DNA of 64,000 nucleotides from Hydrurus foetidus. Taxonomy: Eukaryota. The notes under the pieces are model-generated. The model saw nothing but the letters and a program-made list of their open reading frames with translations. It did no database searches and was not told the DNA's origin. The DNA is taken from the NCBI GenBank assembly GCA_900617105.1, contig UYFQ01000732.1, positions 62,001-126,000 on the forward strand. The letters are read 5' to 3'. Made by a program: the position numbers and the translations under genes. Shown one piece after another: positions 27,302 through 64,000 of this stretch (positions are counted from its first letter, which is position 1; each line of letters opens with the position of its first letter).

Positions 27302-28099
27302 ATGGAACTCCGACACCGCGCGCTGCACGCCTTTTGCCTGACCGATGCGCTTGAAAAGGCCGATGCCACCCAAGCACTATGGACAAACGCTGCGAACCTC
27401 CCACTGGACACCGTGGTGGCATTCCCGTGGCCAGAACAGCCAGGACGTCCCCTTCGCCCCGAGCAGGTTGACCCAAAGGATGTGCCGCGCCGTACACCTT
27501 TCACCGCAGAAGGCCACGCGGCCCTCATGCATTCCATTGCCCATATCGAATTCAACGCCGTCAACCTAGCCCTCGATGCCGTCTGGCGCTTTCCGGGCAT
27601 GCCGCCCGCGTACTACCTGGACTGGCTGCGCGTTGCCCAGGAAGAAGCCACGCATTTCAAACTGCTGCACACCCATCTGCAGGCCTGCGGCTACGACTAT
27701 GGAAGTTTTGCGGCCCATGACGGCCTGTGGACTGTGTGTCAGCACACCCGCCACGATGTAGTGGCCCGCATGGCCCTGGTGCCGCGCACCATGGAAGCCC
27801 GCGGCCTCGACGCCATTCCGCTGATACAGACCAAGCTGCGCAAAGTGGGCACGCCACAGGCGCTGCAAGCGATGGCCGTACTGGACGTGATTTTGGAAGA
27901 AGAGGTGGGCCACGTGGCCATCGGCAACCAGTGGTACCACTGGCTTTGTAAACAAAATGGGCTGGAACCCGGCGCGTTCTATGCGCATGCTGCTATCAAA
28001 CATGCAGCACCGCGCCCCAAGCCGCCGTTCAATCTGGAGGCCCGCAAACGGGCCGGTTTCTCGGATGCAGAGATGCAAGCCTTGCTGGACGGCGCTTGA
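27302..28099 (+). CDS. Ferritin-like protein (DUF455)
   Basis: HSIAHIEFNAVNLALD, EEATHF, EARGLD, EEVGHV. Confidence 0.9.
   Translation: MELRHRALHAFCLTDALEKADATQALWTNAANLPLDTVVAFPWPEQPGRPLRPEQVDPKDVPRRTPFTAEGHAALMHSIAHIEFNAVNLALDAVWRFPGMPPAYYLDWLRVAQEEATHFKLLHTHLQACGYDYGSFAAHDGLWTVCQHTRHDVVARMALVPRTMEARGLDAIPLIQTKLRKVGTPQALQAMAVLDVILEEEVGHVAIGNQWYHWLCKQNGLEPGAFYAHAAIKHAAPRPKPPFNLEARKRAGFSDAEMQALLDGA
27945..28009 (-). repeat. Fixed-spacing repeat, copy 4 (inside the DUF455 gene, degenerate)
   Basis: Reverse complement GCTG-CATGTTTGA-TAGC-AGCAT-GCGCA with the CTAG box degenerate and an AT-rich tail. Confidence 0.6.
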
Positions 28100-28145
28100 A
28101 CCACAACGCCACGTCTAGAATGCCCTGAACACCGCTCTGCGCACC

Positions 28146-29393
28146 ATGTCCGACTCTGCCATCTCCGCTCCCAGCCCCACCACAGCGCCCATCGCCATTG
28201 CCCGCCAGGCGATTCTGGATGCCCAGCGCATGGTGTTTGGCTACGAACTGTTCGACCGCTCCGTGCGAGCCGACCACCACACCGCCTCCAGCGATGCGCA
28301 ACTGCTGTTCAACCTGCTGTCCATGGCGGAGAACCAGCCTTTGATGGACCGCAAGACCCTGTTCGTCAACTGCACGCATGACAGCCTGGCAGGTGGTCAC
28401 CTGGAGCTTGTCGCCCCTGACCACATCGTGCTGGAAATTCCGCCGTTGTCCGTTTCGCAGGTGGACCAGATCAAAACCCGCTTCCCCACCTTGCAGACCA
28501 TCCGCGACCGTGGTTTTCGGCTGGCGTTTGATTACTCGGTACTCACACGCTCTTACGAAGACTGGCTGCCTCTGGCGTCTTTCATCAAGTTTGATCTGTC
28601 CGTCCTCAAACCCCAGGCTGTGGCCTCGTTTGTCAAACTGGCGCGGACCAAATCCAGCGCCCAGCTGATTGCAGAAAAAGTCGAGACCGCCCAGCAGCAC
28701 GCAATGCTGCAAGAGCTGGGCATCACCCTGTTTCAGGGCTACTGGTTTGCCAAGCCCGTGTTGGTCGAAGGCCAGACCATCCGGCCCACACAAGCCACCA
28801 TCCTGCAACTCATCAACCTGGTGCGCAAGCAGGCCAGCACCAACGAGATCGAGGAAGTGCTCAAGCGCGACCCTACTCTGTCGTTCAACCTGCTGCGCTT
28901 TATCAACTCGGCAGGTTTTGGTCTGCGCACCGAAGTCACTTCGTTCAAGCACGCGGTCATGTTGCTGGGGCTCAACAAATTGTTCAAGTGGGCGGCCCTG
29001 CTACTCACCACATCCCAGGCAGGCGACACGCCACCGGCGGTGGGCACTACCGCCGTGGTGCGGGGACGGCTCATGGAGTTACTGGCGGGCGAAACCCTGC
29101 CCGCCGATGAATGCGACAACGCGTTTGTGGTGGGCGTGTTCTCGCTGCTGGACACACTGCTGGGCATTCCCATGCCCGCCGCCCTGGCAACGCTGACGCT
29201 GCCAGACACCGTCACCAACGCCCTGCTCTACCGCACCGGCCCGCTGGCAGCTTATCTGTCCTTGACCGAAGCCTGTGAGACGGGTGACGACGCCACATTC
29301 GCCCAAACCACCACGGCCCTGGGCCTGAGCAGCAACCAGGTCAACTGGGCCCACCTGCAGGCGCTGGCCTGGGCCGAAACCCTGCTCGACTAA
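28146..29393 (+). CDS. EAL-HDOD domain protein
   Basis: ARQAI, GYELF, AEKVET, FQGYWF, LLRFINSA, VGVFSLLD. Confidence 0.92.
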   Translation: MSDSAISAPSPTTAPIAIARQAILDAQRMVFGYELFDRSVRADHHTASSDAQLLFNLLSMAENQPLMDRKTLFVNCTHDSLAGGHLELVAPDHIVLEIPPLSVSQVDQIKTRFPTLQTIRDRGFRLAFDYSVLTRSYEDWLPLASFIKFDLSVLKPQAVASFVKLARTKSSAQLIAEKVETAQQHAMLQELGITLFQGYWFAKPVLVEGQTIRPTQATILQLINLVRKQASTNEIEEVLKRDPTLSFNLLRFINSAGFGLRTEVTSFKHAVMLLGLNKLFKWAALLLTTSQAGDTPPAVGTTAVVRGRLMELLAGETLPADECDNAFVVGVFSLLDTLLGIPMPAALATLTLPDTVTNALLYRTGPLAAYLSLTEACETGDDATFAQTTTALGLSSNQVNWAHLQALAWAETLLD

Positions 29394-29410
29394 ACCCGCG
29401 TGCGGTTAGC

Positions 29411-31942
29411 CGCGTATTCCGGGCGAACTGACCACCCGCGCCGGCATCAATTGACCCGTACGGGAAATGCGCTGGCGGGCGTTGACCACGACTGTGACCG
29501 GCTGTTGAAGGCCAGTAGCGGACTTTTCTGGCGCTCCATAGCTGACATCAATCACCACACAATTGGTGTGCGGCAATTGCATTAAAGGTGCTTAGCTCTG
29601 AGCGTACTAGGGCAACCATTTAGACATAGGTATCGCATACAAACGACTTGCCGCCAGATTTTGACTTGCTTTTTGATGCCCCAGAAAGCGGATTTCCGAG
29701 CTGGCTACATCCCATTGCATGGGTTTATTAGTGTACGGATCGTTGAATTCCTCGGGCAGACTGCGTAACGTCTCCGGGATGCTAGCAAGTGGTATATCTT
29801 TGTTTGCGAGTCTTAACTGCAATGCAAGCAATCGGATGTGGCCATTCAAGTCATGATGCTTTTCGATGATCCCAAAATAGTCGGCACTATAGAAATTTGC
29901 TTGGCTCAGTATTTTTCCTATCGGATTGACGGGGTGAAAATTTGCCAAGATTCCAAACTCATTGGCAGCACTGAGTTTCAAGCCTGTCCTCTCAACCTCT
30001 GCGTCATAGGTGTCGGCTGAGGACTTCGCCAAATGGATATATTTTTCAAACTCCGTGAAGATTAGATTTTCAGTAGCTTTCGGCATAGCAAAGAGCCGAG
30101 CGACAAACCGGGGCCACCACCTTACGGTTGGCGAATTCAACATTTCCCGTATTGGCCGTAGAACTCTCGCCCGCTCATCTTCGAAGGCTCTTTCCACGCT
30201 GAATTCGGAACCGGCAACAGGGTCTGCGAGCGGCTGCAGTTCTTGAATGTATTTGCTTACGATAGAGGGGTACTTTTGTACAACCTCGCTGATGAACCGC
30301 AAGTCCTTATTCACCATTCCCACTGCGATCAGGTAGCTGTAACGTGTTGTTGCTTGTTGAAGCACTCGCCTTGAGAACAGGGCGTTACTTACCAAGTGTT
30401 GAATGCCCTCGGTGTACTTGCCATCCGCCAGCTCAAATAGGGCCATTGCCCTAACCAGATCCGAACCGTCTGTGAGATACCGCCAGTTTGTGCCTCCCAA
30501 TTGCGTGAGCGGTGTCACTACAACTTCAAATCGCGTTGAACCCGCAATCAATCTTAAACGCTGCTCTAGGGTCGAAATCTGGGGCGACGCGTTCGCGATC
30601 GAAGACCGGATACTGAGGTAGTGCTCAACACAATTTTGTTTTGAATAGTCGCAGAGATATTTTGTGAACGCTGTAGCGGGCATGACATTCGTAGAGTCGC
30701 CTGCGAGAAGCTGACCATCACGCCTTCGTTTTTCGTATTCATTCAATTGCGATTGCAATATGGCTTTGCCTACAGCCGCAGGATCAACATCGGGCGCGGC
30801 ATCTTGACCCAAAAGCACGATGTAGCCGTTGTCGTCAAACGCGGTTGGCGATGGTGCCCATTCAAAGACTTTGGCCACCTCTGGACGCAGTGCTTCATCC
30901 TTCCAATTGATGGCTACCAGAATCAATAGCGCAGTAATGACCAGCCCGAGCAGTGCCACGAACAGGTATACGAGCCACTTGAGTACGTAGCGCACCAACT
31001 TCTTTATCTTCGTAAGCGGTGTTCCTTCCATCACCCCTTCTGCGCGGATCACAACGCTATTTGTAAGGTAGTCGTGCAGGGTTTGATGTCTTTTCGTAAA
31101 CGGTTGAATTAGGTCGCCAACCAACCCTATGCCTGGCACTGAGTGGATGAAAGCACGCAGGGCCGCTCTGCAGTAGCTCAGGCGAGAAGCGTCGGTTCTA
31201 ACCACTTTGATTGAAAACAGGCGCTTTCCAAAACTGGCTGAGTATCGACCGGACTCTTGGAATCCAAAATAGATTGGACCAAACAGCGCAATGACTACAA
31301 CTAAAGCCACAAGCTGCCCAACCGGATCGGGTATGTGCATAGTCCAGTCTCCGCCAGGGAGCACTTGAAAGTTCATTTGTTCAAACAAACTCCAAGTCCA
31401 CATTTGTATTGCGAGCCACAAAGTGAAAGTGAATACGACGCTGTCCACTGCCAAGGCTGCCACTCTCCGCCACCATTGCGCATAGGCTGCGTTCGGTTCG
31501 ACGTACGACGCAGCCACAGTTTCTATAGATGGGGGCTTTACGTCCATATGGCGAATAACCTAAAGTAATGTATTGTTAATACGGTTTGGTTTGCCGTTCG
31601 AATTGCGCATCATGCCAGAAGCATTTGCCCAGAGTGCCCAGCTTTAGTCACACAAACTCTATGACTTATGACGGTGATGGAGTGTCTAGTGAATCACTTG
31701 GGAGGGGAGGTGCAAGCGTGCGAAACGACGAAACTACAACCCACTGGGTCACGCGCTCGAACGGCCGGTTTCGCGGCAGTCCAGCCGGTCGCCAGCACAT
31801 GCGGAATGAGAACATACCCGCCATGGTGGTGATCGAGCGCTAGCGCGTGCAACTGGCCATTGACCCGCGCACGTTGCTGGTCAGCAGCAGCAGGGTGGTC
31901 AGCCTTTGCCGGAACGGTGTTCAGTGGTTGCCACCATACGCA
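29411..31942. mobile_element. Degenerate IS21-like ends enclosing a passenger gene (no transposase)
   Basis: Left end CGCGTATTCCGGGCGAACTGACCACC..CCGGCA..TGACC; right end (rc) TGCGTATGGTGGCAACCACTGAACACC..CCGGCA..TGACC; flanks TTAGC / CTAGC. Confidence 0.55.
29607..31547 (-). CDS. RDD-domain membrane protein fused to a large extracytoplasmic domain
   Basis: YAQWWRRVAALAVD, SFGKRLFSIKVV, QTLHDYLTNSVV; visibly more AT-rich than its neighbours. Confidence 0.85.
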   Translation of the reverse strand: MDVKPPSIETVAASYVEPNAAYAQWWRRVAALAVDSVVFTFTLWLAIQMWTWSLFEQMNFQVLPGGDWTMHIPDPVGQLVALVVVIALFGPIYFGFQESGRYSASFGKRLFSIKVVRTDASRLSYCRAALRAFIHSVPGIGLVGDLIQPFTKRHQTLHDYLTNSVVIRAEGVMEGTPLTKIKKLVRYVLKWLVYLFVALLGLVITALLILVAINWKDEALRPEVAKVFEWAPSPTAFDDNGYIVLLGQDAAPDVDPAAVGKAILQSQLNEYEKRRRDGQLLAGDSTNVMPATAFTKYLCDYSKQNCVEHYLSIRSSIANASPQISTLEQRLRLIAGSTRFEVVVTPLTQLGGTNWRYLTDGSDLVRAMALFELADGKYTEGIQHLVSNALFSRRVLQQATTRYSYLIAVGMVNKDLRFISEVVQKYPSIVSKYIQELQPLADPVAGSEFSVERAFEDERARVLRPIREMLNSPTVRWWPRFVARLFAMPKATENLIFTEFEKYIHLAKSSADTYDAEVERTGLKLSAANEFGILANFHPVNPIGKILSQANFYSADYFGIIEKHHDLNGHIRLLALQLRLANKDIPLASIPETLRSLPEEFNDPYTNKPMQWDVASSEIRFLGHQKASQNLAASRLYAIPMSKWLP

Positions 31943-32851
31943 CTAGCCGCGCGGGTGGTGCTGGGCGTGCAAAGCCGCCAAGCGTTCCCGTGCGACATGG
32001 GTGTAAATGGTGGTGGTGGAAATATCTGCATGGCCCAGCAGCATTTGCACGGAGCGCAAATCCGCACCGTGGTTCAGCAAATGGGTGGCAAAGGCATGGC
32101 GCAAGATGTGCGGTGACATGGGCGCGCGTATGCCTGCCGCCAGCGCGTACTTTTTCACGATGCCCCAGAACATCACCCGTGACATGGCCGTGCCTGCCTG
32201 CGCGCCGCGCGAAGTGATGAACAAATCCTGGGTCTGCTTGGGGCCCAACAACTCCGCGCGAGCCTGGCCCAAGTACCGCTGCAGCCACTGCGCTGCCACT
32301 TCGCCAAACGGTACTAGGCGCTCCTTCGATCCCTTGCCCAGCACCCGCAGCACGCCCTCGTTCAGGCCCAGGTTCAGCGTGCGCAGCGTCACCAGTTCGG
32401 TAACCCGCAAACCGCTTGCGTACATCAGTTCCAGCATGGTGCGGTCGCGCACGCCCAGCGCCGTGCCCGTGTCGGGCGCGGCCAACAGGGCTTCTACCTG
32501 GGCTTCGGTCAGGGTTTTGGGCACCCGCAAGGCCTGCTTGGCGGCCTGCAGTTTGAGTGTGGGGTCGGCGGCCACCATCCCCTCACGCAGAGCCCAGCGA
32601 AAGAAGCGCCGAAACACCGTCAAGCGCCGGTTGGCCGTGGTGGCTTTGGTGTGCGCATGCTGCGCCCCAAAGTAAGCCTGGATGTCATGTTCCTGCACCT
32701 CCGTCAGGCTGCGCCCCTGCAGCGACTGGGCAAACAGCGTCAGGTCACGCCGGTAGGCCTGCAAGGTATTTTTGGACAAGCCCTCTTCCAGCCAGAGGGC
32801 ATCAATGAAGGCGTCGACCGACGCCGTATCGGCCATCGCAGCAGCGGTCAT
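31943..32851 (-). CDS. xerD: Site-specific tyrosine recombinase XerD
   Basis: [48 protein letters not shown]-terminal HHPRG. Confidence 0.96.
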
Positions 32852-33807
32852 TCCAGGTGCAATTTGGCGGACTCCACCACTTTTTTGTACACGTCAAACT
32901 CAGCCTTGATCTGCGCGGTGAACTGCTCCGGCGTATTGCCCACCACCAGAGAGCCGGTTTCTTCAATGCGCTTCTTCACCGCCGGGTCTTCCAGTACCTT
33001 GCGCACGGCGGCGTTGATCTTGTCCACCACCTCGCGGGGCAAGCCCTTGGGGCCATAGATGCCGTAGAAGGCCATGCGGTTGGCCGGCTCCAGCCCCACT
33101 TCCTTGAACGTGGGCACATTGGGCAACTGCGCCAGCCGCTGCGGCGCAGCCACCACGATGGGGACCAGCTTGTTGGCATTGATGAAGGGCATGGCCGATG
33201 GCATGTTGTCAAAAATCATGGGCACCTGGCCCGCCACCGTATCGTTAAGCGCGGGGCCCGCACCGCGGTACGGGATGTGGGTGATAAAGGTGCCGGTCAG
33301 GCTCTTGAACAACTCGGTCTGCAAATGTCCGATACCGCCGGTGCCCGACGTGGCGTAGGAATACTTGCCCGGGTTGGCCTTGATCTCGGCCAGAAACCCC
33401 TTGTAGTCCTTGGCCGGAAAACTGGGGTGCACCGCAATCACATTGGGCGTGGCCGCAATGTTGATGATGGGCGTGAAGTCAGTCAGCGGGTTGTAGGGGT
33501 TCTTGGGGTTGATGGCCGGGTTGGCGGCCACCGTAGACACGGTGGCAATGCCCAGCGAATACCCGTCGGGCACGGCCTTGGCCGTTTCATTGGCGCCCAC
33601 CACACCGCCACCACCGGCCTTGTTCTCCACAATCACGCTCTGGCCCAGCACCTTGCCCAGCGGGTCGGCAATCACGCGGGCAATGATGTCAGTGGTGCCG
33701 CCGGGCGCAAAAGGCACCTGCAGCTTGATGACCTTGTTGGGGTAGCCCTGCGCCAGCGCAGCACTGGATGCGGCCACGAGGCCCATGGCGAACAGCAGAC
33801 GACGCAT
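32848..33807 (-). CDS. Bug/TctC tripartite tricarboxylate transporter substrate-binding protein
   Basis: [29 protein letters not shown]. Confidence 0.93.
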
Positions 33808-54274: not shown

Positions 54275-54851
54275 GGTCGGCTCCTTCGGTAGTGGGTTTG
54301 GCGGGGGTAAACACGCTCTTCACCCGGTCTTTCATCTCCAGCAGCTTTTGCACCTTGGCGCCCATTTTCATCAGGCTGGCCAGCGTTTCGGAATCCATCT
54401 TTTGCACATCGTCCAGCCAATCGGTCATCAGCTCGATGAAGGCGTGCATCTGCTTCATGCGCTCCTGCGCGTGGATGTCCTCAGTCCCGCTGGGCTGCTC
54501 CATCAGCGCGTCGCGCAACATGGAGAGCGTCGGGTCAATCTCACGCTTGCGCCGCTCGGCCGCCAGGGTGCGGAAGATGGTCCACACATCTTCCGGGGCC
54601 TGAAAATACTCTCGCCGGTCATTCGGTTGGTGGATCAGCCGCACCAGGTTCCACGACTGCAGCTCTTTGAGCCCCATGCTCACATTGGACCGGGAAAACG
54701 CCAGCGCCTCCCCGATTTCGTCCGCATTCAGCGGCTTGGCCGACACATAGAGCAGCGCGTAAATCTGGCCCACCGTGCGGTTGATGCCCCAGCGGCTGCC
54801 CATTTCGCCGAAGTGCAGCACAAAGCGCTGCGTGAGCGGAGGAAGGTTCAT
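54261..54851 (-). CDS. GbsR/MarR-family transcriptional regulator
   Basis: FGEMGSRWGINRTVGQIYALL, SRSNVSMGLKEL, DRREYF. Confidence 0.92.
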   Translation of the reverse strand: MNLPPLTQRFVLHFGEMGSRWGINRTVGQIYALLYVSAKPLNADEIGEALAFSRSNVSMGLKELQSWNLVRLIHQPNDRREYFQAPEDVWTIFRTLAAERRKREIDPTLSMLRDALMEQPSGTEDIHAQERMKQMHAFIELMTDWLDDVQKMDSETLASLMKMGAKVQKLLEMKDRVKSVFTPAKPTTEGADHGQL

Positions 54852-54860
54852 GTTCTGATT

Positions 54861-54896
54861 TTCCTGAGTTTTCAGTATTTTCTGAAATATCAGGAA
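54861..54896. promoter_or_regulatory. Palindromic operator, probably for GbsR-type autoregulation
   Basis: TTCCTGA-GT-TTTCAG-TATTTT-CTGAAA-TA-TCAGGAA, just upstream of the regulator ATG. Confidence 0.7.
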
Positions 54897-54921
54897 TTAA
54901 GGGAAGTCGGAGCCTTTAACC

Positions 54922-54935
54922 TTGACTTGACGCAA
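54922..54935. promoter_or_regulatory. FNR-like box
   Basis: TTGAC-TTGA-CGCAA versus consensus TTGAT-N4-ATCAA, upstream of an oxidase operon. Confidence 0.45.
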
Positions 54936-54953
54936 GGGGTATTCATGGGGCAG

Positions 54954-55018
54954 TTTAGGCATGGAATTGGCCTCTAGCCCCCGTGGAATATGCGCAAGCA
55001 GCTATCAAAGTAGTAGCA
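54954..55018 (-). repeat. Fixed-spacing repeat, copy 9 (at the island boundary)
   Basis: Reverse complement GCTA-CTACTTTGA-TAGC-TGCTT-GCGCA-N13-CTAG. Confidence 0.88.
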
Positions 55019-55458
55019 AATTGAGGGTCATTGGGCAGGCTGTAGTAATAATGGCTTTCCACCCGAGGTACTGCCCAAGGTGACCGCGGGGCTGAACGTT
55101 GGCGCGGGGGTGACGTTCATTGTGTCGGGGGTGTCGGTGCTGGCGTTGAAGTCGCGGGCGAACTGAATTCAGATTGTGTTTGACCACTGGTGTGAAGCAC
55201 AGCAGAGCGGCGGGTGGGTCCCTGGTGCTTTGGCATTGAGGGCGGTAACCGAACCTTTGCGGACCTCCGAAGTCTCAACTTCCTATCCAGAAAGCCGACG
55301 TCCGACGCACCGCGAAACCGGCCTACCTCAAAGCCCAGGAAAGTTGGTAGCTCGGGCCTAACAACGCGTGGCGTATCTCTTGCGCCAACGGTAGAACTCA
55401 CACTTTGTTCCAACGTCCCCTTTTCAGCGTCAGGCAGGACACTCAACGGTGAGGGTGG

Positions 55459-57867
55459 TCACTCTCCAGGCGCGTCAGCGTTCGGCGGCTCGGCTGGCAG
55501 GTCAATCTTCGGGGGCTCGTCATTTCGGAAGTAGATGGCGGTAGTGGCCATTGCCAGATCTTCGGCTCGCGACGCAAGAAACTCGATCTCGCCAAATTCC
55601 TTCTTCGTGCGCTCATAGAGACTATACGGCTCAAGCTCACGGTCGGTAAGCAAGATGACGCGTTGTTCGTATTGCCCATTCAGAGAGCGCGCAAGCGCAA
55701 TTTCTTCCTGCGTGAACGCTGCCAGCTTGGCGAACAAGATGTAGACGCGAAAGCGCCGGCGTGGAAACGCATCGGCAACTGCCCTGAGATTTTCGATGTC
55801 GTTCGCGTTGATAGTTCCGGCTTCACCCTGCCGCGCGCCGGTGCCACGATCCTTGCACTCCCCGATGATGATCGGCGTTCTTCCATCACGGTTCGTTGAC
55901 CTGCCGGTCGTTATCCAGGCGAAGTCGACCTCGCATGTTGGCATTGCGCCTGCGACCTTTGGTGTCAGATCGAGCGATGTCGAATGAAGTTCGTCACCGA
56001 ACACGCCGTGCAAATTTGCGTCGAGTTGCTGGAGCGTCATCAACACGGGGATCGCTCCCTGCACATTCTTCTCCGCACCGAGAACGCCGGACCGTCGGTA
56101 GTGCCATTGCTCTTTGATGAGCTGGCGCGTTGCGTCGAAGGTGTTGCCGCACATATCGCATGAGACTTGCTGCCTCAGATTTTCAAGCGAGGTCCAGCTC
56201 GTGATCTGACAGGTTGGGCAAAGCAGATCGTAGCCGATACGAAACAACTTCTTGTCGACGAGATACTTGAAGACATCCTGCTGGGTCAGGTCGCCGCCGC
56301 TGCGTGGTTCGAGATACAGGTCCTTATGCTGGGCGAACGTCGCTGCAGGATTGTCAGGGTCCGGCTTTCCAATGAGGCCAAGCGCAGATGACTTCGTGAA
56401 GGCGTCCGTGGGACCAAACGTTTTCAAGAGCCGACGAACACCAGGAATCTTGAATGCGATCGCTCCCCGAAGTCCGCCTAGCTGCGCAATTAGTTGCCGC
56501 GCCATCAAGCCGCCGCGGCTGTGCTGCGCTGTGAAGCCGGCCAGGCCAAAGACTGCCTTAAAGAGCGCGTCGACCGGCAGCGCGTAGATGAACTCGTCGG
56601 TATCGGTCGCATCGATTACGAAGCCGATCCGATCCGGCTCAGCGCGAAGGCGGTCGTATCGAAAGTGCATGGATCGCGCAAGGAATTCGTTCAACTCCGG
56701 CACGTATGGGGGCCTGAGCGTGAAGTTGTCATTTGCGTAGAGACCGCCGATGAAGGACAGCGATGCGACAAGCTTCTGCGTGTGAAACCAAGTCTCGCCG
56801 GAGAACGGCTTGTCGGCCAATGCAAACGAGAGCTTTGGCTTGGACCCGTCGGTCATCAGAACGCCGAGCGACGTTGATTTGCCAAGATACATCATGGGCG
56901 CAGCGATGTTGAGCCCGTTCCATGAGTGCTCGGACACATCATCTATGACCAACTCTTGGACGCCGAGAACTCTGCGCGTCTCCTCCACGCGCTCTTGCCA
57001 TTTGTCATGAGGTTGTCCCTGGGACCAGACGGTCACTCCTCTTGGCCCAACGTTGTCGGGCGCACGCGCGAGGAGTTGAGCGACCTGCTCGTTCCATTTC
57101 GGGATGATCTCGGCGTAGCGTCCTTGAACGGACGGATCGACGAATATCGTGGAGATGTTGGCGGCTCTCAGGTTCCAGAACGTGACGAGATCTGCCAGGT
57201 TGGACGAAGAGCCAAAGAAGTAACCGGGCCGGTTTCTGCCGCTGTAGCCTCTGTGGTAGGCAGACAGCCCAGCGCGGGCAAGGTATGCAATGCTCGGATG
57301 CTCCAGGGCGTCACGCGAGATGACGTCGTTTAGGCCGATTGCATGGGCGTCAGGCTTGAGAGCAACCTTCACCAAATCGAGGTAGTCGATACCGATTTCG
57401 TCGCGGGCCGGATAGCCGCCGAATTGAACGAGGAACGTGTCCGCGAGCGGGTCGCTCTCATCCCAGGTGACGATTTGGAACTTGGACGGCAAGTGTCCCC
57501 ACGCGGGGGTCGCCTGTGCATGGACCAGCAGGTTATGAACGTCCAAGACGTTCGAGTGAAACCCATGCCTCTCTTCGCCGATGAAGAGCCGCTCAGGAAA
57601 CATCGGGTTGATCAGGTGCGGGAAACGATCTACGAAAGGCTTCGTGACGGCGGCATCACCAAGCGGGACCACCAGATCAGCACAGAAAAGCTCAAGGATG
57701 CGCGTTGCCTCTTCGGGACGGTCGGCGAACACGATCGGATTGAAACGGCCACCGAAGAAGCAGTGCGTATAGCGAACCGCCTTGCGAAAGGATGCAATGT
57801 CCGTGCTTGCGATCGCCCAGCAGATGCGAAGCGGTCTGTAGTAGATGTCGACGCGTACCGTGTCCAT
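55459..57867 (-). CDS. 802-aa hypothetical protein with a C-terminal Zn ribbon and a PD-(D/E)xK nuclease-like motif
   Basis: CPTC..CDMC; EVDFAW...IIGECKD; long uninterrupted ORF inside the island. Confidence 0.75.
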   Translation of the reverse strand: MDTVRVDIYYRPLRICWAIASTDIASFRKAVRYTHCFFGGRFNPIVFADRPEEATRILELFCADLVVPLGDAAVTKPFVDRFPHLINPMFPERLFIGEERHGFHSNVLDVHNLLVHAQATPAWGHLPSKFQIVTWDESDPLADTFLVQFGGYPARDEIGIDYLDLVKVALKPDAHAIGLNDVISRDALEHPSIAYLARAGLSAYHRGYSGRNRPGYFFGSSSNLADLVTFWNLRAANISTIFVDPSVQGRYAEIIPKWNEQVAQLLARAPDNVGPRGVTVWSQGQPHDKWQERVEETRRVLGVQELVIDDVSEHSWNGLNIAAPMMYLGKSTSLGVLMTDGSKPKLSFALADKPFSGETWFHTQKLVASLSFIGGLYANDNFTLRPPYVPELNEFLARSMHFRYDRLRAEPDRIGFVIDATDTDEFIYALPVDALFKAVFGLAGFTAQHSRGGLMARQLIAQLGGLRGAIAFKIPGVRRLLKTFGPTDAFTKSSALGLIGKPDPDNPAATFAQHKDLYLEPRSGGDLTQQDVFKYLVDKKLFRIGYDLLCPTCQITSWTSLENLRQQVSCDMCGNTFDATRQLIKEQWHYRRSGVLGAEKNVQGAIPVLMTLQQLDANLHGVFGDELHSTSLDLTPKVAGAMPTCEVDFAWITTGRSTNRDGRTPIIIGECKDRGTGARQGEAGTINANDIENLRAVADAFPRRRFRVYILFAKLAAFTQEEIALARSLNGQYEQRVILLTDRELEPYSLYERTKKEFGEIEFLASRAEDLAMATTAIYFRNDEPPKIDLPAEPPNADAPGE

Positions 57868-58723
57868 GTAAATGCCCGTTACCGAGTGAGTTTACGCTCT
57901 TGAGATAGCCGCGTCGTTCTGTTCGATTGCGACGCGACATCCGTCTTCGATTGCAATCAATCCGGCTCGAGGATCGCGACCGTGGGATGCCCGGATCCTC
58001 GCCAGCAACACGCCGATTTCGACGTCTTGTTCCGGTTTGATGGAAACCAATACCTGGTCCCAGGTTGCGTTGGAACTGGCCAACGTCCCGCACTCTGCCA
58101 CTAGCCGCTGAGCGGAGGTTGGCGCGCTGCCGGACGCTTCAGCGTCGCGGACCTCGTTCGCAGTGTTCTACTGAACGAACTTAGCTGCGAAGTACAAGAT
58201 CGCGGCCGCAGCAACTATCCAGATAATGGTCATCCAGCAAGTGTGCTGCCGGGAAGCTGACGGTCGCCAAGGGCAGCTCCTGGCCCAAAGCGAACAACGT
58301 ATTCGCACAAAGCCTGGGTTGATTCAATGAAGCTCCTTGGGGAACACATAGTGAATGCGGAAGACAGAATCCAAGACGGCTTCTGCGGTTGCGTGCGCCG
58401 CCCCTTTTGGCATACGAAATTTCTTCATGTAGTACTCAAGCAGTGCGCGCTCTGCCAGAGGGTAATGTTCTTTAATCGACGCATAAGCCTTTCGATACGT
58501 CATACCTTGGCCGGCCCAAGTCTCAAGATTAGCGTCGACCTCTTCACGAGAGTTATACGGTTTTCCCATGGCCCACGGACGCAAGGCAGCATTCGCCCAT
58601 GCCTGCTGGACGTCAATGCGAATACGTGCAGTAGGCTGAAGCGTTCCTTCGTTTTGACCGCTACCGATGGTCTGATTCAACAAAATACTGAGTCTTTGAA
58701 CAGAGCGAGGTAATAGAAAATGT

Positions 58724-60052
58724 CAGTAGTGTCCCAACGTTTTTCAGAGGAGAACGAGCTGTCGAGGCTCGAAATCCAAAACTGAATCGGTCGCGGATGG
58801 CGTAAGTAGTTGATTTATTGGGGTTTGTTCAAACATGGTCAAGCTCAGGATTTGTAGGATTTCGTAAAGGCTGTGATGTTCAAGATGCAAGCGCTTCTTT
58901 GCAATGGCGATCAACACGTAGGTGCAAACCGCAATCCAGATTTGCGTCTTCACGGCGTTCTCGCTGGTGCCCAAGAAAGCTTTGATGCGAAGGTGCTGCT
59001 TGACCCATTTGAAGAACAACTCCACCTTCCAGCGTTGACGGTACAGATCGGCAATGAGCTCTGGCTTCAAGGCAAAGTTGTTGGTCAGAAACGTGATGCG
59101 CTTGCCGGTTTCGTCCTTGACTACCACCCGGCGCAAAGTAGTTGGGTAATCCTTGCTGGAGTAGAACACCGTGAGCACGCCGATCTGATCGCAGATAACC
59201 GACGTGTTGCTGCGGTCCACAGGGTTGGAATAGCGCCGTCTGAACTGGGTATTGCTCTTGGCACGCGTCACGAAGAAGGCCTGCGCCTGATGAATCACGT
59301 ACAGCCTCTTGAAATCCAGATAACCCCGATCCATCAGGTAGAACGCTCCGGCTTCGAGCACCAAATCGTCCAGTACGTTGACCTCGTGGGTCTTGCCATC
59401 GGTGATGTGAATGAAGCTGGGGATGGAGCCATGCAGATCCAGCAAGGTGTGCAGCTTGATAGCGGCCTTGGTGGATCGAAACGGCGCCCACGGATGCAGG
59501 GACAGACACAAGTCGATGGTGCTGGCGTCGAACGCGTAGACGGCTGCATCCAGATCGATGCCCAAAGGCTCTTTGGCATACAACGGTCTGGCCATACCAA
59601 TCAGGTGCTGGGCAAAGTCCGCGTAAATCTGCCACGGTCGTGTGGCGTTCGCATTGGCCAGCGTGTTGCGCGAAATCGTAGAGCAGCGAAAACCCATGTG
59701 ATAAAGCCGATTGGCTTGCGCGCGCAGGTTCACCTCGATGTCGCGCAAGGACTCCCGGTAGGTCAGTTGCGCGAATGCCATGGCGAAGAACTGGTCCAGG
59801 CACGAAAAGTCTTTGACCTTGTGGTCCCCGCGATGCTTGGCCACACAACGCCGGAAAGTAGTCATGGGCAGAAAGGCCATGAGTTGAGAAAACACGAGCT
59901 TGCCTTGGTGCATACCGGCCCTTCGCGCGAATGCGCAAAAGGCCATAAGTCTGACGCTCGACGTTCAAATCGAGACCAGACTGAAATGCAAAATTCTGCA
60001 AGTAAATCATTAACTTACGAAGTCCTGATGTGAGAACGTTGGGACACTACTG
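58724..60052 (-). mobile_element. IS4-family insertion sequence, 1329 bp
   Basis: Perfect 18-bp IRs CAGTAGTGTCCCAACGTT; 9-bp TSD AGAAAATGT at 58715-58723 and 60053-60061. Confidence 0.95.
58744..59913 (-). CDS. IS4-family DDE transposase (DUF4372 + DDE_Tnp_1)
   Basis: FDASTI, MDRGYLD, LYRQRWKVELFFKWVKQHL. Confidence 0.95.
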   Translation of the reverse strand: MHQGKLVFSQLMAFLPMTTFRRCVAKHRGDHKVKDFSCLDQFFAMAFAQLTYRESLRDIEVNLRAQANRLYHMGFRCSTISRNTLANANATRPWQIYADFAQHLIGMARPLYAKEPLGIDLDAAVYAFDASTIDLCLSLHPWAPFRSTKAAIKLHTLLDLHGSIPSFIHITDGKTHEVNVLDDLVLEAGAFYLMDRGYLDFKRLYVIHQAQAFFVTRAKSNTQFRRRYSNPVDRSNTSVICDQIGVLTVFYSSKDYPTTLRRVVVKDETGKRITFLTNNFALKPELIADLYRQRWKVELFFKWVKQHLRIKAFLGTSENAVKTQIWIAVCTYVLIAIAKKRLHLEHHSLYEILQILSLTMFEQTPINQLLTPSATDSVLDFEPRQLVLL

Positions 60053-61309
60053 AGAAAATGTGCATTCTTAACATCGGGACGAAAGAGAATTTCGCAGGTC
60101 GGTTTTGGTGAAACGGGATTAGGTACATAGACCTCCCAGTTCGGTGAAAACACGTACGGTTCACCAACGTAGATCATCCAGAGATCCTGTCCACTACCCT
60201 TCCTAAAAACCAGTGGTGCACGCCAGCCTCCCGAGATCAATGCAGCTAGCTTGGATAGGGCTCCACTGCTCCTTGCGGTCAAATAGTCTGTTTCCTTGAT
60301 CTGTCGGTCAATAGAGCGGACTTCATATACATCACCTCTCCATCCATGAGGTATCTCTTCGATGACCAATCGTTCACCGTTTCTTATCTCACTCTGCCAG
60401 TAGATGCTTCGTGGGCCGTAATCTGGCAATGGAATTTTTGTGAAAACTTCAAGGTCTACTTCGAGGGCATCGCCACCTGATAGGTCGTAGCCGGAAGGAC
60501 CAACAACCATGGTGTGGCCGAAGTCATCAGGAATGATTGGAGGCGCCCAGAGAGTAAAGTTTCCCGATTCGTGGGCCCACTTTGCGAGCCTCATTGCGGC
60601 CCTGCATTCGGTGGAGTTCTTACCGTTCACCAGCTTTGGCCACGCGTCGTTTGCGGCATTTGCTGAATGCAACGCAAGTCCAAGAAATAGCCCGCAGACA
60701 ATTGACTGCATTTGCATATGCCCCCCGTTTTCTAATTTCCCAAGATGCTACTGCCTTTCCGACTCGGAATAAAAAGGAGGCTTCATAACCCACAGTTGGA
60801 GTGCATTATTGGGTGCAGTAATGACTTCATTGGTGTGGTCGCGACTGGTTTGCAAATAGCAGAGAGAAGTTGCTAACGGCAGTTTTTTCCGCAGTGCGAA
60901 GTCTCAATTCAGTGCCCTAAAGCGGCCATTACTCAAGGACTGCTGGTGTTAAGGGTTGTAGGATGCCCGCCCGCGCAGGCGCACAAAGGCTGTCCGAGTC
61001 ATTGGAGGGCGGGCGTCGTACAAGCCCCGAGGGAGGAAACCGCGGGGCCAGAAGTGCCCCACACGCAAACCCAGTCGTTATTGAGCTATGGCGATTTGAA
61101 GTTACCGGGAACGTCCAGCCTGTGGGCTAAGGGTGCTACGTGGCCCGGCAAGCTGGCGCAATGATGTCGGCGTGGGCGAATTCGCCATCGTTTTACTGTG
61201 GGCGGTTGCGCATGAAGACCCGCCAGTGCAGCCACAGGCAAGGCAACTCCATTTGACGTTCCAAACGGCTTCGTCAATTGCATGTATTGGCGTACGGGAC
61301 AGTGCGCGG

Positions 61310-62521
61310 TCATGGGCCATCCCGCGCTGACGGTGGCGCACGTATCGACTGACCACGCACGAACGATTCCACAACAACCATTTGTGCGCCGCAGTGCGTG
61401 CATACAAAGTTGGGTCGCACTGGTTCATCACCTGCTGCATGGGCATCTGCTACCTGTTCGATAGGAACGGCAGTCGCCACGCCCAGCAGTTCACGCGCAA
61501 GCGCAAGTTTCTCCTTGCGTCCGTTATTGGCGATCAAGCCGAAGTGGCGTATGCGATGAAACCCGCCAGGCAAGACATGCAGCAGGAAACGGCGCATGAA
61601 CTCATCGGAGCTGAGCGTCATCGTCTTGTGCCGTGCCCTGTCCGGGTTGCTCTTGTCGCGGTAGTCCTTCCAGCGAAAGGTGACACCACGCTCGTCCATC
61701 GCCACCAGACGGGAATTGGCAATGGCCACGCGGTGCGTGTAGCGCGACAGGTAGGCCAGCACCGCTGCTGGCCCTGCGAACGGGCGTTTGGCATACACGA
61801 CCCATTCGATCTTGCGAAGTGGCGCCAGCCACCTGGCAAATGCCTTGGGATCTGCCAGCCCCGCGCTCTCACCAAAGAACTGCAGCCGACCCTCACGGTG
61901 CACCTCCTCCAGCGCCTCCAGGAAGCGCCGTCGGAACAGGCGCGAGAGCACCCGCACAGACAGGAAGAAGCCGGGCTTGCAAGAAACCCAGCGCTTGCCA
62001 TCCGGTGAGAGCCCTCCGCCCGGCACGATTCCGTGCACATGGGGATGGTGCGTGAGCGCCGAACCCCAAGTGTGCAGCACCAATGTCGCGCCGACCTGCG
62101 CACCCAGATGCTTGGGATCGGCTGCGATGGTGATCAGGGTTTCAGCGGCGATCTCGAACAGCAGGCCGTAGACCACAGCCTTGTTGTAGTACGCGATGTC
62201 GCTGATGGGTGCCGGCAGTGTGAAGACCACATGGTAGTAATCCACCGGCAAGAGGTCGGCCTGGCGGGCTTCCAACCAGCGCTTGGCAGCATGGGCCTGG
62301 CACTTGGGGCAATGCCGGTTGCGGCAGGAGTTGTAGGACACCTGATCGTTCTGGCAGTCCGGACAGCGCAAAACATGGCCCCCCAGCGCCGCCGTGCGGC
62401 ACTGTTCGATCGCTGTCATGACCTTGAGCTGACCCAGACTCAGATGAGAGCGCTGCGCAGCCCTATAGGCAGGCCCATGGGCGCGGAAGATGTCCGCCAC
62501 CGCCAGGGCACTAGGCCCCAT
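61310..62521 (-). CDS. IS91-family rolling-circle (Y2, HUH) transposase
   Basis: Zn motif SCRNRHCPKC, HUH motif HPHVH, YLSRY. Confidence 0.95.
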   Translation of the reverse strand: MGPSALAVADIFRAHGPAYRAAQRSHLSLGQLKVMTAIEQCRTAALGGHVLRCPDCQNDQVSYNSCRNRHCPKCQAHAAKRWLEARQADLLPVDYYHVVFTLPAPISDIAYYNKAVVYGLLFEIAAETLITIAADPKHLGAQVGATLVLHTWGSALTHHPHVHGIVPGGGLSPDGKRWVSCKPGFFLSVRVLSRLFRRRFLEALEEVHREGRLQFFGESAGLADPKAFARWLAPLRKIEWVVYAKRPFAGPAAVLAYLSRYTHRVAIANSRLVAMDERGVTFRWKDYRDKSNPDRARHKTMTLSSDEFMRRFLLHVLPGGFHRIRHFGLIANNGRKEKLALARELLGVATAVPIEQVADAHAAGDEPVRPNFVCTHCGAQMVVVESFVRGQSIRAPPSARDGP

Positions 62522-62529
62522 GGAAGTGC

Positions 62530-63405
62530 CTACTTCGTTGGCAGTGTTTCCAGCGGGCTGATCACCTCTTTAAGCACCTCGGTGGCCACCTGGGTATAAA
62601 GCGCCGTGGTCTCCAGCTTCTTGTGCCCCAGCATTACCTGGATCACGCGGATGTCGACCTTCTGTTCCAACAGATGCGTGGCAAAGCTGTGTCGCAGGGT
62701 ATGCATGGACACGCGCTTGTCGATCTTGGCCAGGGTGGCCGCTTCATGAATAGCGCGGTTGAGTTGCTTCGCAGTAAGAGGGTCGATCGGATCACGCCCT
62801 GGAAACAGCCAGCCGCCATTGAGCATCTTGCCCTGTGCGCGTGCGACACGCCACCACACGCGCAGACGCTCCAACAAGATCGGCGAGATCATGGCGTACC
62901 TGTCCCGTCCGCCTTTGCCTTGTTCCACGCGCAGCGTCATGCGTTGACTGTCGATGTCGCTCACTTTGAGCGAGAGCACTTCACTGACCCGCAGTCCTGT
63001 ACCGTAGGCCACCGCCAGTGCGGTTTGGTGCTTGAGGTTGCCGGCACAAGCAATCAAACGGGCGACCTCTTGCTTGTTCAAGACAACGGGGATCTTGTGG
63101 GGCACACGAACCGATTGCATCTTCGCCAGAACATCGCCATGGCCCAACGTCACATCAAACAGGAACTTCAAGCCGGTGATGGTGGCGTTGAGGGTAATCG
63201 GGGAGGTACCTGCGTCCACCAGGTGCAATTGATAGCGGCGCAAGTCCTCGGCAGTGGCGGTGTCCGGGGAACGCCCCAGATACTGTGCAAATCTGCTGAC
63301 CGCTCGGATATAGGCTTCCCGCGTCTTGGGCGCGAGTTTGCGCATACGCATATCCTCCAGCATGCGTTGACGCAGTGGAGATACCGGTTGGCTTGACGTT
63401 TCCAT
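62530..63405 (-). CDS. Tyrosine recombinase/integrase with an N-terminal SAM-like domain
   Basis: YGTGLRVSE, GKG, HTLRHSFATHL, LGH, ALYT. Confidence 0.95.
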   Translation of the reverse strand: METSSQPVSPLRQRMLEDMRMRKLAPKTREAYIRAVSRFAQYLGRSPDTATAEDLRRYQLHLVDAGTSPITLNATITGLKFLFDVTLGHGDVLAKMQSVRVPHKIPVVLNKQEVARLIACAGNLKHQTALAVAYGTGLRVSEVLSLKVSDIDSQRMTLRVEQGKGGRDRYAMISPILLERLRVWWRVARAQGKMLNGGWLFPGRDPIDPLTAKQLNRAIHEAATLAKIDKRVSMHTLRHSFATHLLEQKVDIRVIQVMLGHKKLETTALYTQVATEVLKEVISPLETLPTK

Positions 63406-63653
63406 GGCTGTGCTCCTGTGTGAATGAGGCCAATTGCCTCAATTCACAACATAGGCACGCGCTAAACCAGATGGGCGCAAACCGCGCTGGCTCGGGGACT
63501 ACCGCGATAGCGGTTTCGTCCAATGGCCCAAAGCAGAAAAAATGCGCGCCGTCATCGCCAGTTCTCAGCTCAAACAATTGAAGCCTAAGGTGTCAGCATC
63601 CGCCAAAAACTGCATTGCTCTCAGGACACAGCATCGGAGACCAATTCAAAAAA

Positions 63654-64000
63654 GGGAGCTTCGTTGAATTCACTGTGATTTTCTAGCCCATCGCCAAGTT
63701 CAACTTGCCACAATGAAACAGAATCCTTGCCCGGTAGTTGGTGAAGTTACGAAACCCACGGGCATTGGCCTTGATGAGTTGGATGGCGCTGTTGAAGCCC
63801 TCCGCACAGGCGTTGCTGATCCTGTGCTGGCTGAAGTTCAGCAATCCCTCCTCGTGGCGCCTGAGCATCTTGACGACCTTTTTGATTGGCTCCAACTTGC
63901 TGCGCATCGCGTTGTTCGACCAGGCTTTGAAGTGGCGTTTGGCAGCACCCTTGTAGCTGTAACTCCAGAACTGGGTGAAGTTCTCCTTGATGCACCAAGC
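63654..64000 (-). mobile_element. ISL3-family element, 3' part (runs off the window)
   Basis: Transposase C-terminus next to an A-rich tract; element end is approximate. Confidence 0.7.
63683..64000 (-). CDS. ISL3-family transposase, C-terminal part
   Basis: SNACAEGFNSAIQLIKANARGFRNFTNYRARI motif. Confidence 0.88.
   Translation of the reverse strand, partial: AWCIKENFTQFWSYSYKGAAKRHFKAWSNNAMRSKLEPIKKVVKMLRRHEEGLLNFSQHRISNACAEGFNSAIQLIKANARGFRNFTNYRARILFHCGKLNLAMG

Follow-up and report, generated by a model that had tools for sequence, protein, structure and literature searches.

Among described systems, the closest working analogy to the locus reported here is the combination of dif (pdif) modules and IS1202-family 'site hunters' in Acinetobacter, as set out in two accounts (PMC13141974, PMC10132070). 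In both cases accessory modules lie between short two-armed, double-stranded sites, their order and orientation vary, and an insertion sequence homes to the sites. Integrons, in which attC is inserted into attI by one strand exchange (PMC3458562), and IS91-family elements, whose targets are given as CTTG/GTTC tetranucleotides (PMC5737581), share further features with it. Small islands of low guanine-plus-cytosine (GC) content in environmental Proteobacteria often have no known entry route. Here, an island was analyzed in a 64,000-nucleotide stretch, referred to as the window, of contig UYFQ01000732.1 (Hydrurus foetidus assembly GCA_900617105.1, positions 62,001–126,000, forward strand), in which a 30-bp site, its crossover base and two candidate enzymes make such a route testable. 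Two minus-strand genes of the island encode a tyrosine recombinase of 291 residues and an IS91 Y2 transposase of 403 residues; on the same strand are a gene disrupted by an IS4-family element, a small broken open reading frame (ORF) and a gene for an 802-residue protein.

The original prediction for this region proposed an integron-like array of co-oriented cassettes, delimited by a two-armed site and run by the neighboring non-IntI recombinase. That interpretation holds in part: the sites do delimit modules by recombination, but the recombinase–Y2 pair is itself a discrete insertion sequence of the multi-copy kind, lodged in such a site. The explanation favored here is that the 30-bp site provides the module breakpoints and the landing point of the IS91 element, and that its native enzyme is probably a stand-alone 207-residue recombinase that is not encoded in the window.

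The 30-bp site and module exchange

Relatives of the window's recombinase were collected (531 confirmed, 80 loci retained), and two halves of one motif were found in unrelated DNA beside the element ends (65 left and 58 right distinct flanks). A weight matrix was derived from 61 left and 52 right halves at homologous-element junctions, with the window and nine tandem or unclear rows left out. The resulting window-independent consensus, AAYGDCNGCT-NNS-GGYC-NNN-AGCNGHCRTT, reproduces the motif AAYGKCNGCT-N10-AGCNGMCRTT proposed from the window alone, and 78 intact flank sites give arm-NNS-GGYC-NNN-arm. Site bases are numbered 1–30 in the sense of the minus-strand island genes. Two 12-bp arms flanking a 6-bp core is the usual spacing of tyrosine-recombinase sites, and the break after base 18 described below would fit this layout, with SGGYCN as the core.

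The two arms show no covariation (353 pairs observed versus 357.5 ± 10.6 in shuffles, or 4.5 of 10 pairs per site). The site is therefore a protein-binding palindrome rather than a hairpin and not an attC, and is likely a double-stranded tyrosine-recombinase site. A hairpin reading, as HUH origin or as attC, is ruled out by the absence of covariation, and a reading as attC sites of a resident integron was rejected as well; in the integron array of a syntenic genome (G091, below), no 30-bp site reaches 12 bits. An Rfam search of 54800–64000 returned no match, Rfam not having been shown to contain an attC model.

Sites scoring at least 14 bits numbered 77 in 729 kb of element flanks, compared with 10 in Markov shuffles and none in a 163-kb control that did not include window positions 27400–32900. 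A 15.9-bit match at 28000, within that excluded stretch, lies inside a host gene and was treated as chance. By rough ORF calls, 53 of the 78 sites are intergenic, while intergenic bases make up 23%. The co-orientation that had been predicted is not general: in the element loci 41 sites face the element's way and 36 the opposite way (the near-palindromic motif makes such polarity calls weak), and of the ORFs up to 3 kb away 131 are on the same strand and 125 on the opposite one, although all cargo in the window itself does lie on the minus strand with the recombinase and transposase. A repeat finder run on 54800–64000 did not recover the sites, which are too degenerate for it, and a strict pattern in ambiguity codes of the International Union of Pure and Applied Chemistry (IUPAC) gave four strand matches at three places in five genomes.

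Within the window, full sites are present at 55238–55267 (11.4 bits, weak when taken alone with 0.61 expected), which forms the left border of the island and contains an observed breakpoint, and at 58269–58298 (13.8 bits, 0.135 expected per 8.5 kb of shuffled DNA), where the 3-kb module described below starts; both are on the minus strand. An accessory arm (58255–58264, minus strand) lies 4 bp from the latter, inside the module end. Another site is split by the element, with bases 1–18 and two variable bases before it (63522–63541) and bases 19–30, two variable bases and the right arm, behind it (60935–60946; both minus strand); it scores 19.4 bits once the element is removed in silico. A strong single arm at 60921–60930 (minus strand) lies back-to-back with the arm at 60935 at a distance of 4 bp, and its partner arm is degenerate. 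Farther away, a second site-bounded module on the minus strand (29497–31789) surrounds a 646-residue RDD-domain gene, with sites at 29497–29526 (23 bits) and 31760–31789 (15 bits). This low-GC gene and its module (29394–31942) are located between an EAL/HDOD gene and xerD; homologs of the gene are too distant for breakpoints to be placed. Further single arms occur at 29540 and 29569.

The copies named in the original prediction were found where it placed them, and were borne out unevenly. The 58269 copy is a full site and 60921–60930 is a good single arm, whereas the copy at 60875–60904 has one good arm (60875–60884) in a 30-mer of only 4.1 bits (24 expected), at chance level, and the weak copy near 58254 amounts to the single arm at 58255–58264 rather than a full site. 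The best score near 58082 is 4.5 bits, and the position near 55050 scores negative at the deletion junction of lysE; neither is a site. The sites at 55238–55267, 29497 and 31760 and the one split by the element had been overlooked.

Evidence for exchange comes from comparisons with other assemblies. The minus-strand module of ~3.03 kb at 55250–58280 is carried at ~96% identity, with different flanks, by metagenome runs from two separate studies of a lake (X1) and of groundwater (X3); their contigs extend neither to host DNA left of the module nor to the next cargo gene. On the left, homology breaks at 55250 in X1 and at 55248 in X3, and each contig continues in a different left arm that fits the motif. 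On the right, the breaks are at 58285 (X1) and 58290 (X3), inside the 58269 site, so that all four module ends are placed within sites. The left break of X1 coincides exactly with base 18; on the right, conservation of the core leaves the ends in agreement with a break at 18|19 without resolving that position. The X1 copy also has 41 extra bases at 58240, adjoining the accessory arm.

The reciprocal half of such an exchange is found in G091, which is syntenic with the window at 86–89% identity. After an intact lysE, this genome has a site at the same spot, in which the outer, chromosome-side arm is kept and homology ends inside the site. Beyond the shared arm are different, co-oriented cargo genes and then a second site. 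Bases 19–20 differ between X1 and X3 as well as between the window and G091. Wherever it can be resolved, the break follows base 18: at element right ends, at the ends of the short-recombinase gene and at the module end in X1. Together, these data support the 30-bp sites as recombination points that delimit exchangeable gene modules. What is new is one site and one crossover base common to an element, a short recombinase and a cargo module, the last with both reciprocal halves observed. Runs X23 and X24, probably derived from the window's own organism and so not independent, show no joint at sites, although their contigs cannot exclude one.

An alternative is that the sites are mere scars or hot spots of the insertion sequence, and that cargo reaches the same islands by unrelated routes and collects there. 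Gene gain and loss does not follow the sites everywhere: in run X8 and in locus L283 (a 95% homolog), near-identical 802-residue genes have homology that stops at gene edges instead of sites, which favors this alternative, as do the only modest rarity of single window sites and the counts of a looser pattern, which in 126 genomes fell mostly below its reversed control. The looser pattern was accordingly used only to choose stretches for reading, and no genome-wide count or enzyme correlation was drawn from it. Further observations tell against the favored explanation: most of the distant homologs of the 802-residue gene have no nearby site; no second cargo module bounded by sites at both ends emerged when all flanks were compared with one another; and the 29.4–31.9 kb module is missing from G091 together with both its sites (only ~12 bp are there), so that a first site must arrive another way. 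Run X6 is too short to locate the module end. However, mere scars would not account for module ends lying inside sites in X1 and X3, with new motif-fitting arms on the left, for the reciprocal half retained in G091, or for short-recombinase units ending at base 18. Cargo entry by unrelated routes is regarded as very improbable, and we are highly confident that the site is real and used for module exchange.

In the proposed mechanism, the position between bases 18 and 19 would be one cleavage position of the site, and each module would run from a right arm to a left arm plus core. With 12-bp arms around a 6-bp core, cleavage at 18|19 would amount to a single strand swap that needs no identity of the core. 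This recalls integrons, where exchange also occurs at one fixed base and does not depend on identity of the core, in keeping with a single strand swap. Integrons differ in having an attC fold at module borders, a single entry site and general co-orientation; here the modules carry several genes, and in the element loci sites lie on both sides.

Module exchange at the sites between genomes, a feature of pdif systems, was found here as well. A dif site is built as 11-6-11, and judged by the dif consensus the sites described here have no Xer arms and are not 28-bp XerC/XerD sites. Rearrangements at pdif sites involve identical or near-identical spacers, whereas cores here differ between partners. 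The dif modules are called unique to Acinetobacter plasmids in the literature cited above; the modules described here are chromosomal and plasmid-borne and occur in several proteobacterial classes.

Regularities are also seen in the arms alone. The same 10-mer arm variant, TTGAGACTTC (minus strand), occurs in 55269–55302 and in 60898–60930, 13–14 bp past each left half-site, and arm spacings in other loci peak at 4, 13, 15, 16, 25 and 35 bp. The recurrent spacings suggest empty micro-modules.

The recombinase–Y2 element

The element occupies 2,575 bp (60947–63521, minus strand) and is inserted after base 18 of the split site. Its 291-residue tyrosine recombinase (62530–63405, minus strand) consists of Phage_int_SAM_4 and Phage_integrase domains with R-K-H-R-H-Y motifs. 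Compared with the IntI of G091 it does not contain the IntI-specific insertion, and it scores 177.6 bits against TIGR02249, below the cut-off of 265, in agreement with its original assignment as non-IntI. The 403-residue transposase (61310–62521, minus strand) has HUH and YxxxY motifs and a zinc-binding domain, and matches NF033538 with 433 bits (cut-off 125). The Y2 gene directly follows the recombinase gene in 77 of the 80 loci. Sequence conservation sets in sharply at GGAC(T/G)AAACCGC and stops at ACAACCCTTAAC. The left end (63500–63521, minus strand) begins with GGAC followed by a short, putatively terIS-like hairpin, and the right end (60947–61050, minus strand) is a long imperfect hairpin closing in ACAACCCTTAAC plus one base. 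The element has neither terminal inverted repeats nor a target duplication, the only similarity between its ends being an imperfect 12-bp internal inverted match.

Near-identical elements occur in multiple copies in three genomes (G921, G919 and G071), and the six copies in G921 have identical ends in different places. The three near-identical copies in G071 (L209, L212 and L213) have recombinase matches in several pieces, that is, the genes are frameshifted. Two of the G921 copies at different loci (L043 and L045) share a tail of ~30 bp behind the right end; it stops at base 18 of the ordinary site that comes next. In X23 and X24, read depth over 60947–63521 is ~3 times that of the cargo, and a second contig carries a transposase of ~85% identity; depth and second contig indicate more element copies in the organism behind these runs, the probable source organism.

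Closely related element pairs were compared at their flanking bases. Behind the right end, 46 of 56 pairs have the first base in common, and 18 of 56 the second and likewise the third. For the two bases that precede the left end, the counts are 13 and 9 of 35 pairs. In G921 the bases before the six copies are AA or TT, each of which is found behind some copy, and the bases behind are more varied. This two-base rule held in one of three cases in G919 and one of two in G920, which speaks against its generality. End-to-end element junctions with three bases between the ends were found at two loci (L009 and L039), fitting either a circle or a tandem copy. The joined ends are predicted to form a long attC-like stem, with the bottom strand more stable than the top in all ten elements folded and z scores of −2.9 to −7.5 relative to mononucleotide shuffles.

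These features resemble, and depart from, described IS91 elements. ISAzo26 and ISShvi3 are names in an IS91-family group with an upstream tyrosine recombinase; as in that group, the Y2 protein is above its NCBIfam cut-off, the recombinase gene lies upstream and there is no target duplication. The left end starts with GGAC/GAAC, matching the GTTC tetranucleotide on the other strand (PMC5737581). However, a CTTG/GTTC target was not found at the element: the right-end flank consists of two variable bases and a site arm. The target is thus a 30-bp two-armed site with two variable bases at each end, and the element belongs to a variant subgroup rather than to canonical IS91. The IS1202-family hunter of pdif sites differs again, as it is a DDE element that inserts 5 bp away with a 5-bp duplication, while the Y2 element lands at the crossover itself and duplicates nothing. 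That the recombinase–Y2 element is a site-homing variant of IS91 can be stated with high confidence.

IS91-associated tyrosine recombinases were placed in an integron-like subgroup without the IntI insertion in a preprint survey (10.1101/542381); the accessible portion of its journal version contains no mention of IS91 (PMC8138268). The element shares with integrons both a recombinase of this subgroup and joined ends predicted to fold like attC, without the IntI insertion. In the proposed mechanism it would act as a site hunter: the Y2 transposase would generate a circle of single-stranded DNA that includes two flanking bases, the joined ends would fold like attC, and the IntI-related recombinase would insert the element at 18|19 by one strand exchange. 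If so, the element would be a living link from rolling-circle transposition to integron chemistry, and the role of the extra recombinase in IS91-like elements would be explained.

Since the element inserts where modules break, its enzyme or a partner must recognize the site. The original prediction took this recombinase as the one that runs the array, and the modules could indeed be moved by it, with or without Y2, the element being the engine and the short recombinase a passenger. Its insertion base is the module break base, bases 19–20 are variable both in modules and at the element, and the common tail of the two G921 copies ends at base 18 of an ordinary site. Genome G003 has site clusters and the element with no short-recombinase match, which likewise favors the element as engine. 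However, the element ends are long fold-backs rather than ordinary sites, ordinary sites show no fold, and arrays without the element exist in G091, at the same chromosomal spot, and in the single-contig genome G015. The element's recombinase is considered an unlikely, though far from negligible, candidate for the module enzyme.

A 207-residue recombinase as candidate module enzyme

In G015, assembled as a single contig of 3.89 Mb, an array contains a recombinase of 207 residues, comprising the catalytic domain only, between sites, and no Y2 match was obtained in this genome. The short recombinase was found in 17 of 126 sampled genomes of the genus and in 5 of the 80 element loci, and its homologs occur on 361 plasmid records; viral contigs gave only two partial matches. 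In a set of 18 loci, from which one mis-sliced row was dropped, a site follows the gene within 300 bp in 11 (0.2 expected) and precedes it within 400 bp in 5. In two pairs of near-identical loci (L346/L362 and L348/L359) the match ends precisely at base 18, and nine copies, chosen by a common core, end in the order arm, 4 bp, arm and core, the layout also seen in the window at 58255/58269 and 60921/60935. Among plasmid loci from other genera, five of six have a site of at least 11 bits within 100 bp. A subgroup of the short recombinase (L355, L356 and L358) is preceded by a toxin-antitoxin-like gene pair instead of a site.

FimB/FimE-type short recombinases consist of ~200 residues and the catalytic domain only, as does the protein described here. 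The match to their profile is, however, weak (23 bits, cut-off 222), and the gene is a site-bounded mobile unit rather than part of a fixed invertible switch. As its own unit ends in an ordinary site and contains no other mobility gene, the short recombinase is the simplest candidate for the module enzyme. Judged from these sequence associations, the 207-residue recombinase, which is not encoded in the window, is probably that enzyme. It would act in trans, or would have acted earlier, to excise modules and insert them in either orientation. The candidate enzyme of the present system is thus a mobile recombinase, unlike the XerC/D of pdif modules.

Some findings sit poorly with this assignment. 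The short recombinase has no N-terminal binding domain and could be a passenger; the site clusters of G003 occur without it; and G091 and G103 have sites with neither enzyme matched. The tyrosine recombinases of G091 are XerC, XerD, IntI and two weak matches only. By analogy with integrase-less attC clusters, orphan arrays left behind by a passing enzyme would explain site-bearing genomes of this kind. They could also be explained if a host enzyme, either XerC/XerD or a resident integron integrase, carried out the exchange and both recombinase genes only exploited the sites. The site-bounded cargo of G091 beside such a limited set of recombinases is in line with this possibility, as is the location of one module directly downstream of xerD. 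It conflicts with arms that do not resemble dif arms and with the absence of 30-bp sites of 12 bits or more from the G091 integron array, and it leaves the tight linkage between short recombinase and site unexplained. Exchange by a host enzyme therefore appears quite improbable, and the short recombinase is retained as the preferred candidate. The G091 integron itself (L207:4073–10181) is a true one, with a 334-residue IntI and ~ten small genes, in which matches to a simple attC pattern were confined to the vicinity of the integrase start.

In the literature covered, largely open-access papers, no description was found of the site, of site-homing by such elements or of the short recombinase. 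It is tempting, at somewhat less than even confidence, to regard the whole as a third natural system of gene-module exchange beside integrons and dif modules, spread across Proteobacteria. It would combine a degenerate site, a minimal mobile recombinase that has no binding domain and exchanges modules at a single base irrespective of core homology, and a parasite of the IS91 type entering the same site by means of an HUH-made, attC-like single-stranded substrate and a relative of IntI. If confirmed, this would add a way of shuffling genes that relies on neither integrons nor Xer, and a 207-residue recombinase tolerant of degenerate sites would serve as a compact genetic tool.

Setting and cargo of the island

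The island adjoins gbsR-cydAB-like host genes, and the closest element homologs indicate a Rhodoferax-like genome. At its left side, a plus-strand 3′ remnant of the host lysE (55066–55166) corresponds to the gene that is intact in G091.

The 3-kb module contains the 802-residue protein gene (55459–57867, minus strand) and a small membrane-anchored ORF of ~113 codons (57892–58233, minus strand) with an in-frame stop at codon 22. The 802-residue protein belongs to a large family of at least 1000 homologs that has no Pfam name, and no match was obtained in Pfam, PADLOC or NCBIfam. The top Foldseek matches are Card1/Can2/Cdn1-type proteins (E values of 2e-5 to 9e-4, low template-modeling scores), and Atlas gave a lead to Mrr_cat at 0.88. 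Based on this weak structural likeness, the gene possibly encodes an undescribed defense nuclease. A single-protein metagenome scan for the gene gave no match, and a class search had G661 as its sole match, which was used for no claim.

On the other side of the 58269 site, a cargo gene of ~351 residues with a probable signal peptide (58324–60717, minus strand) is present as predicted, but is interrupted by a 1,329-bp IS4-family element (58724–60052, minus strand). This element has a 9-bp target duplication and is an unrelated passenger; it swamped a DNA search with the family. An intact 350-residue homolog of the cargo gene is found in G061 in another context, with a 16-bit site upstream of it.

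Two further features flank the region. A high-copy intergenic repeat common to many genomes of the genus occupies 54955–55020; it resembles repetitive extragenic palindromic (REP) sequences and is unrelated to the 30-bp site. Near the opposite border, 63683–64000 holds the end of an ISL3-family transposase, and the island probably extends past the window.

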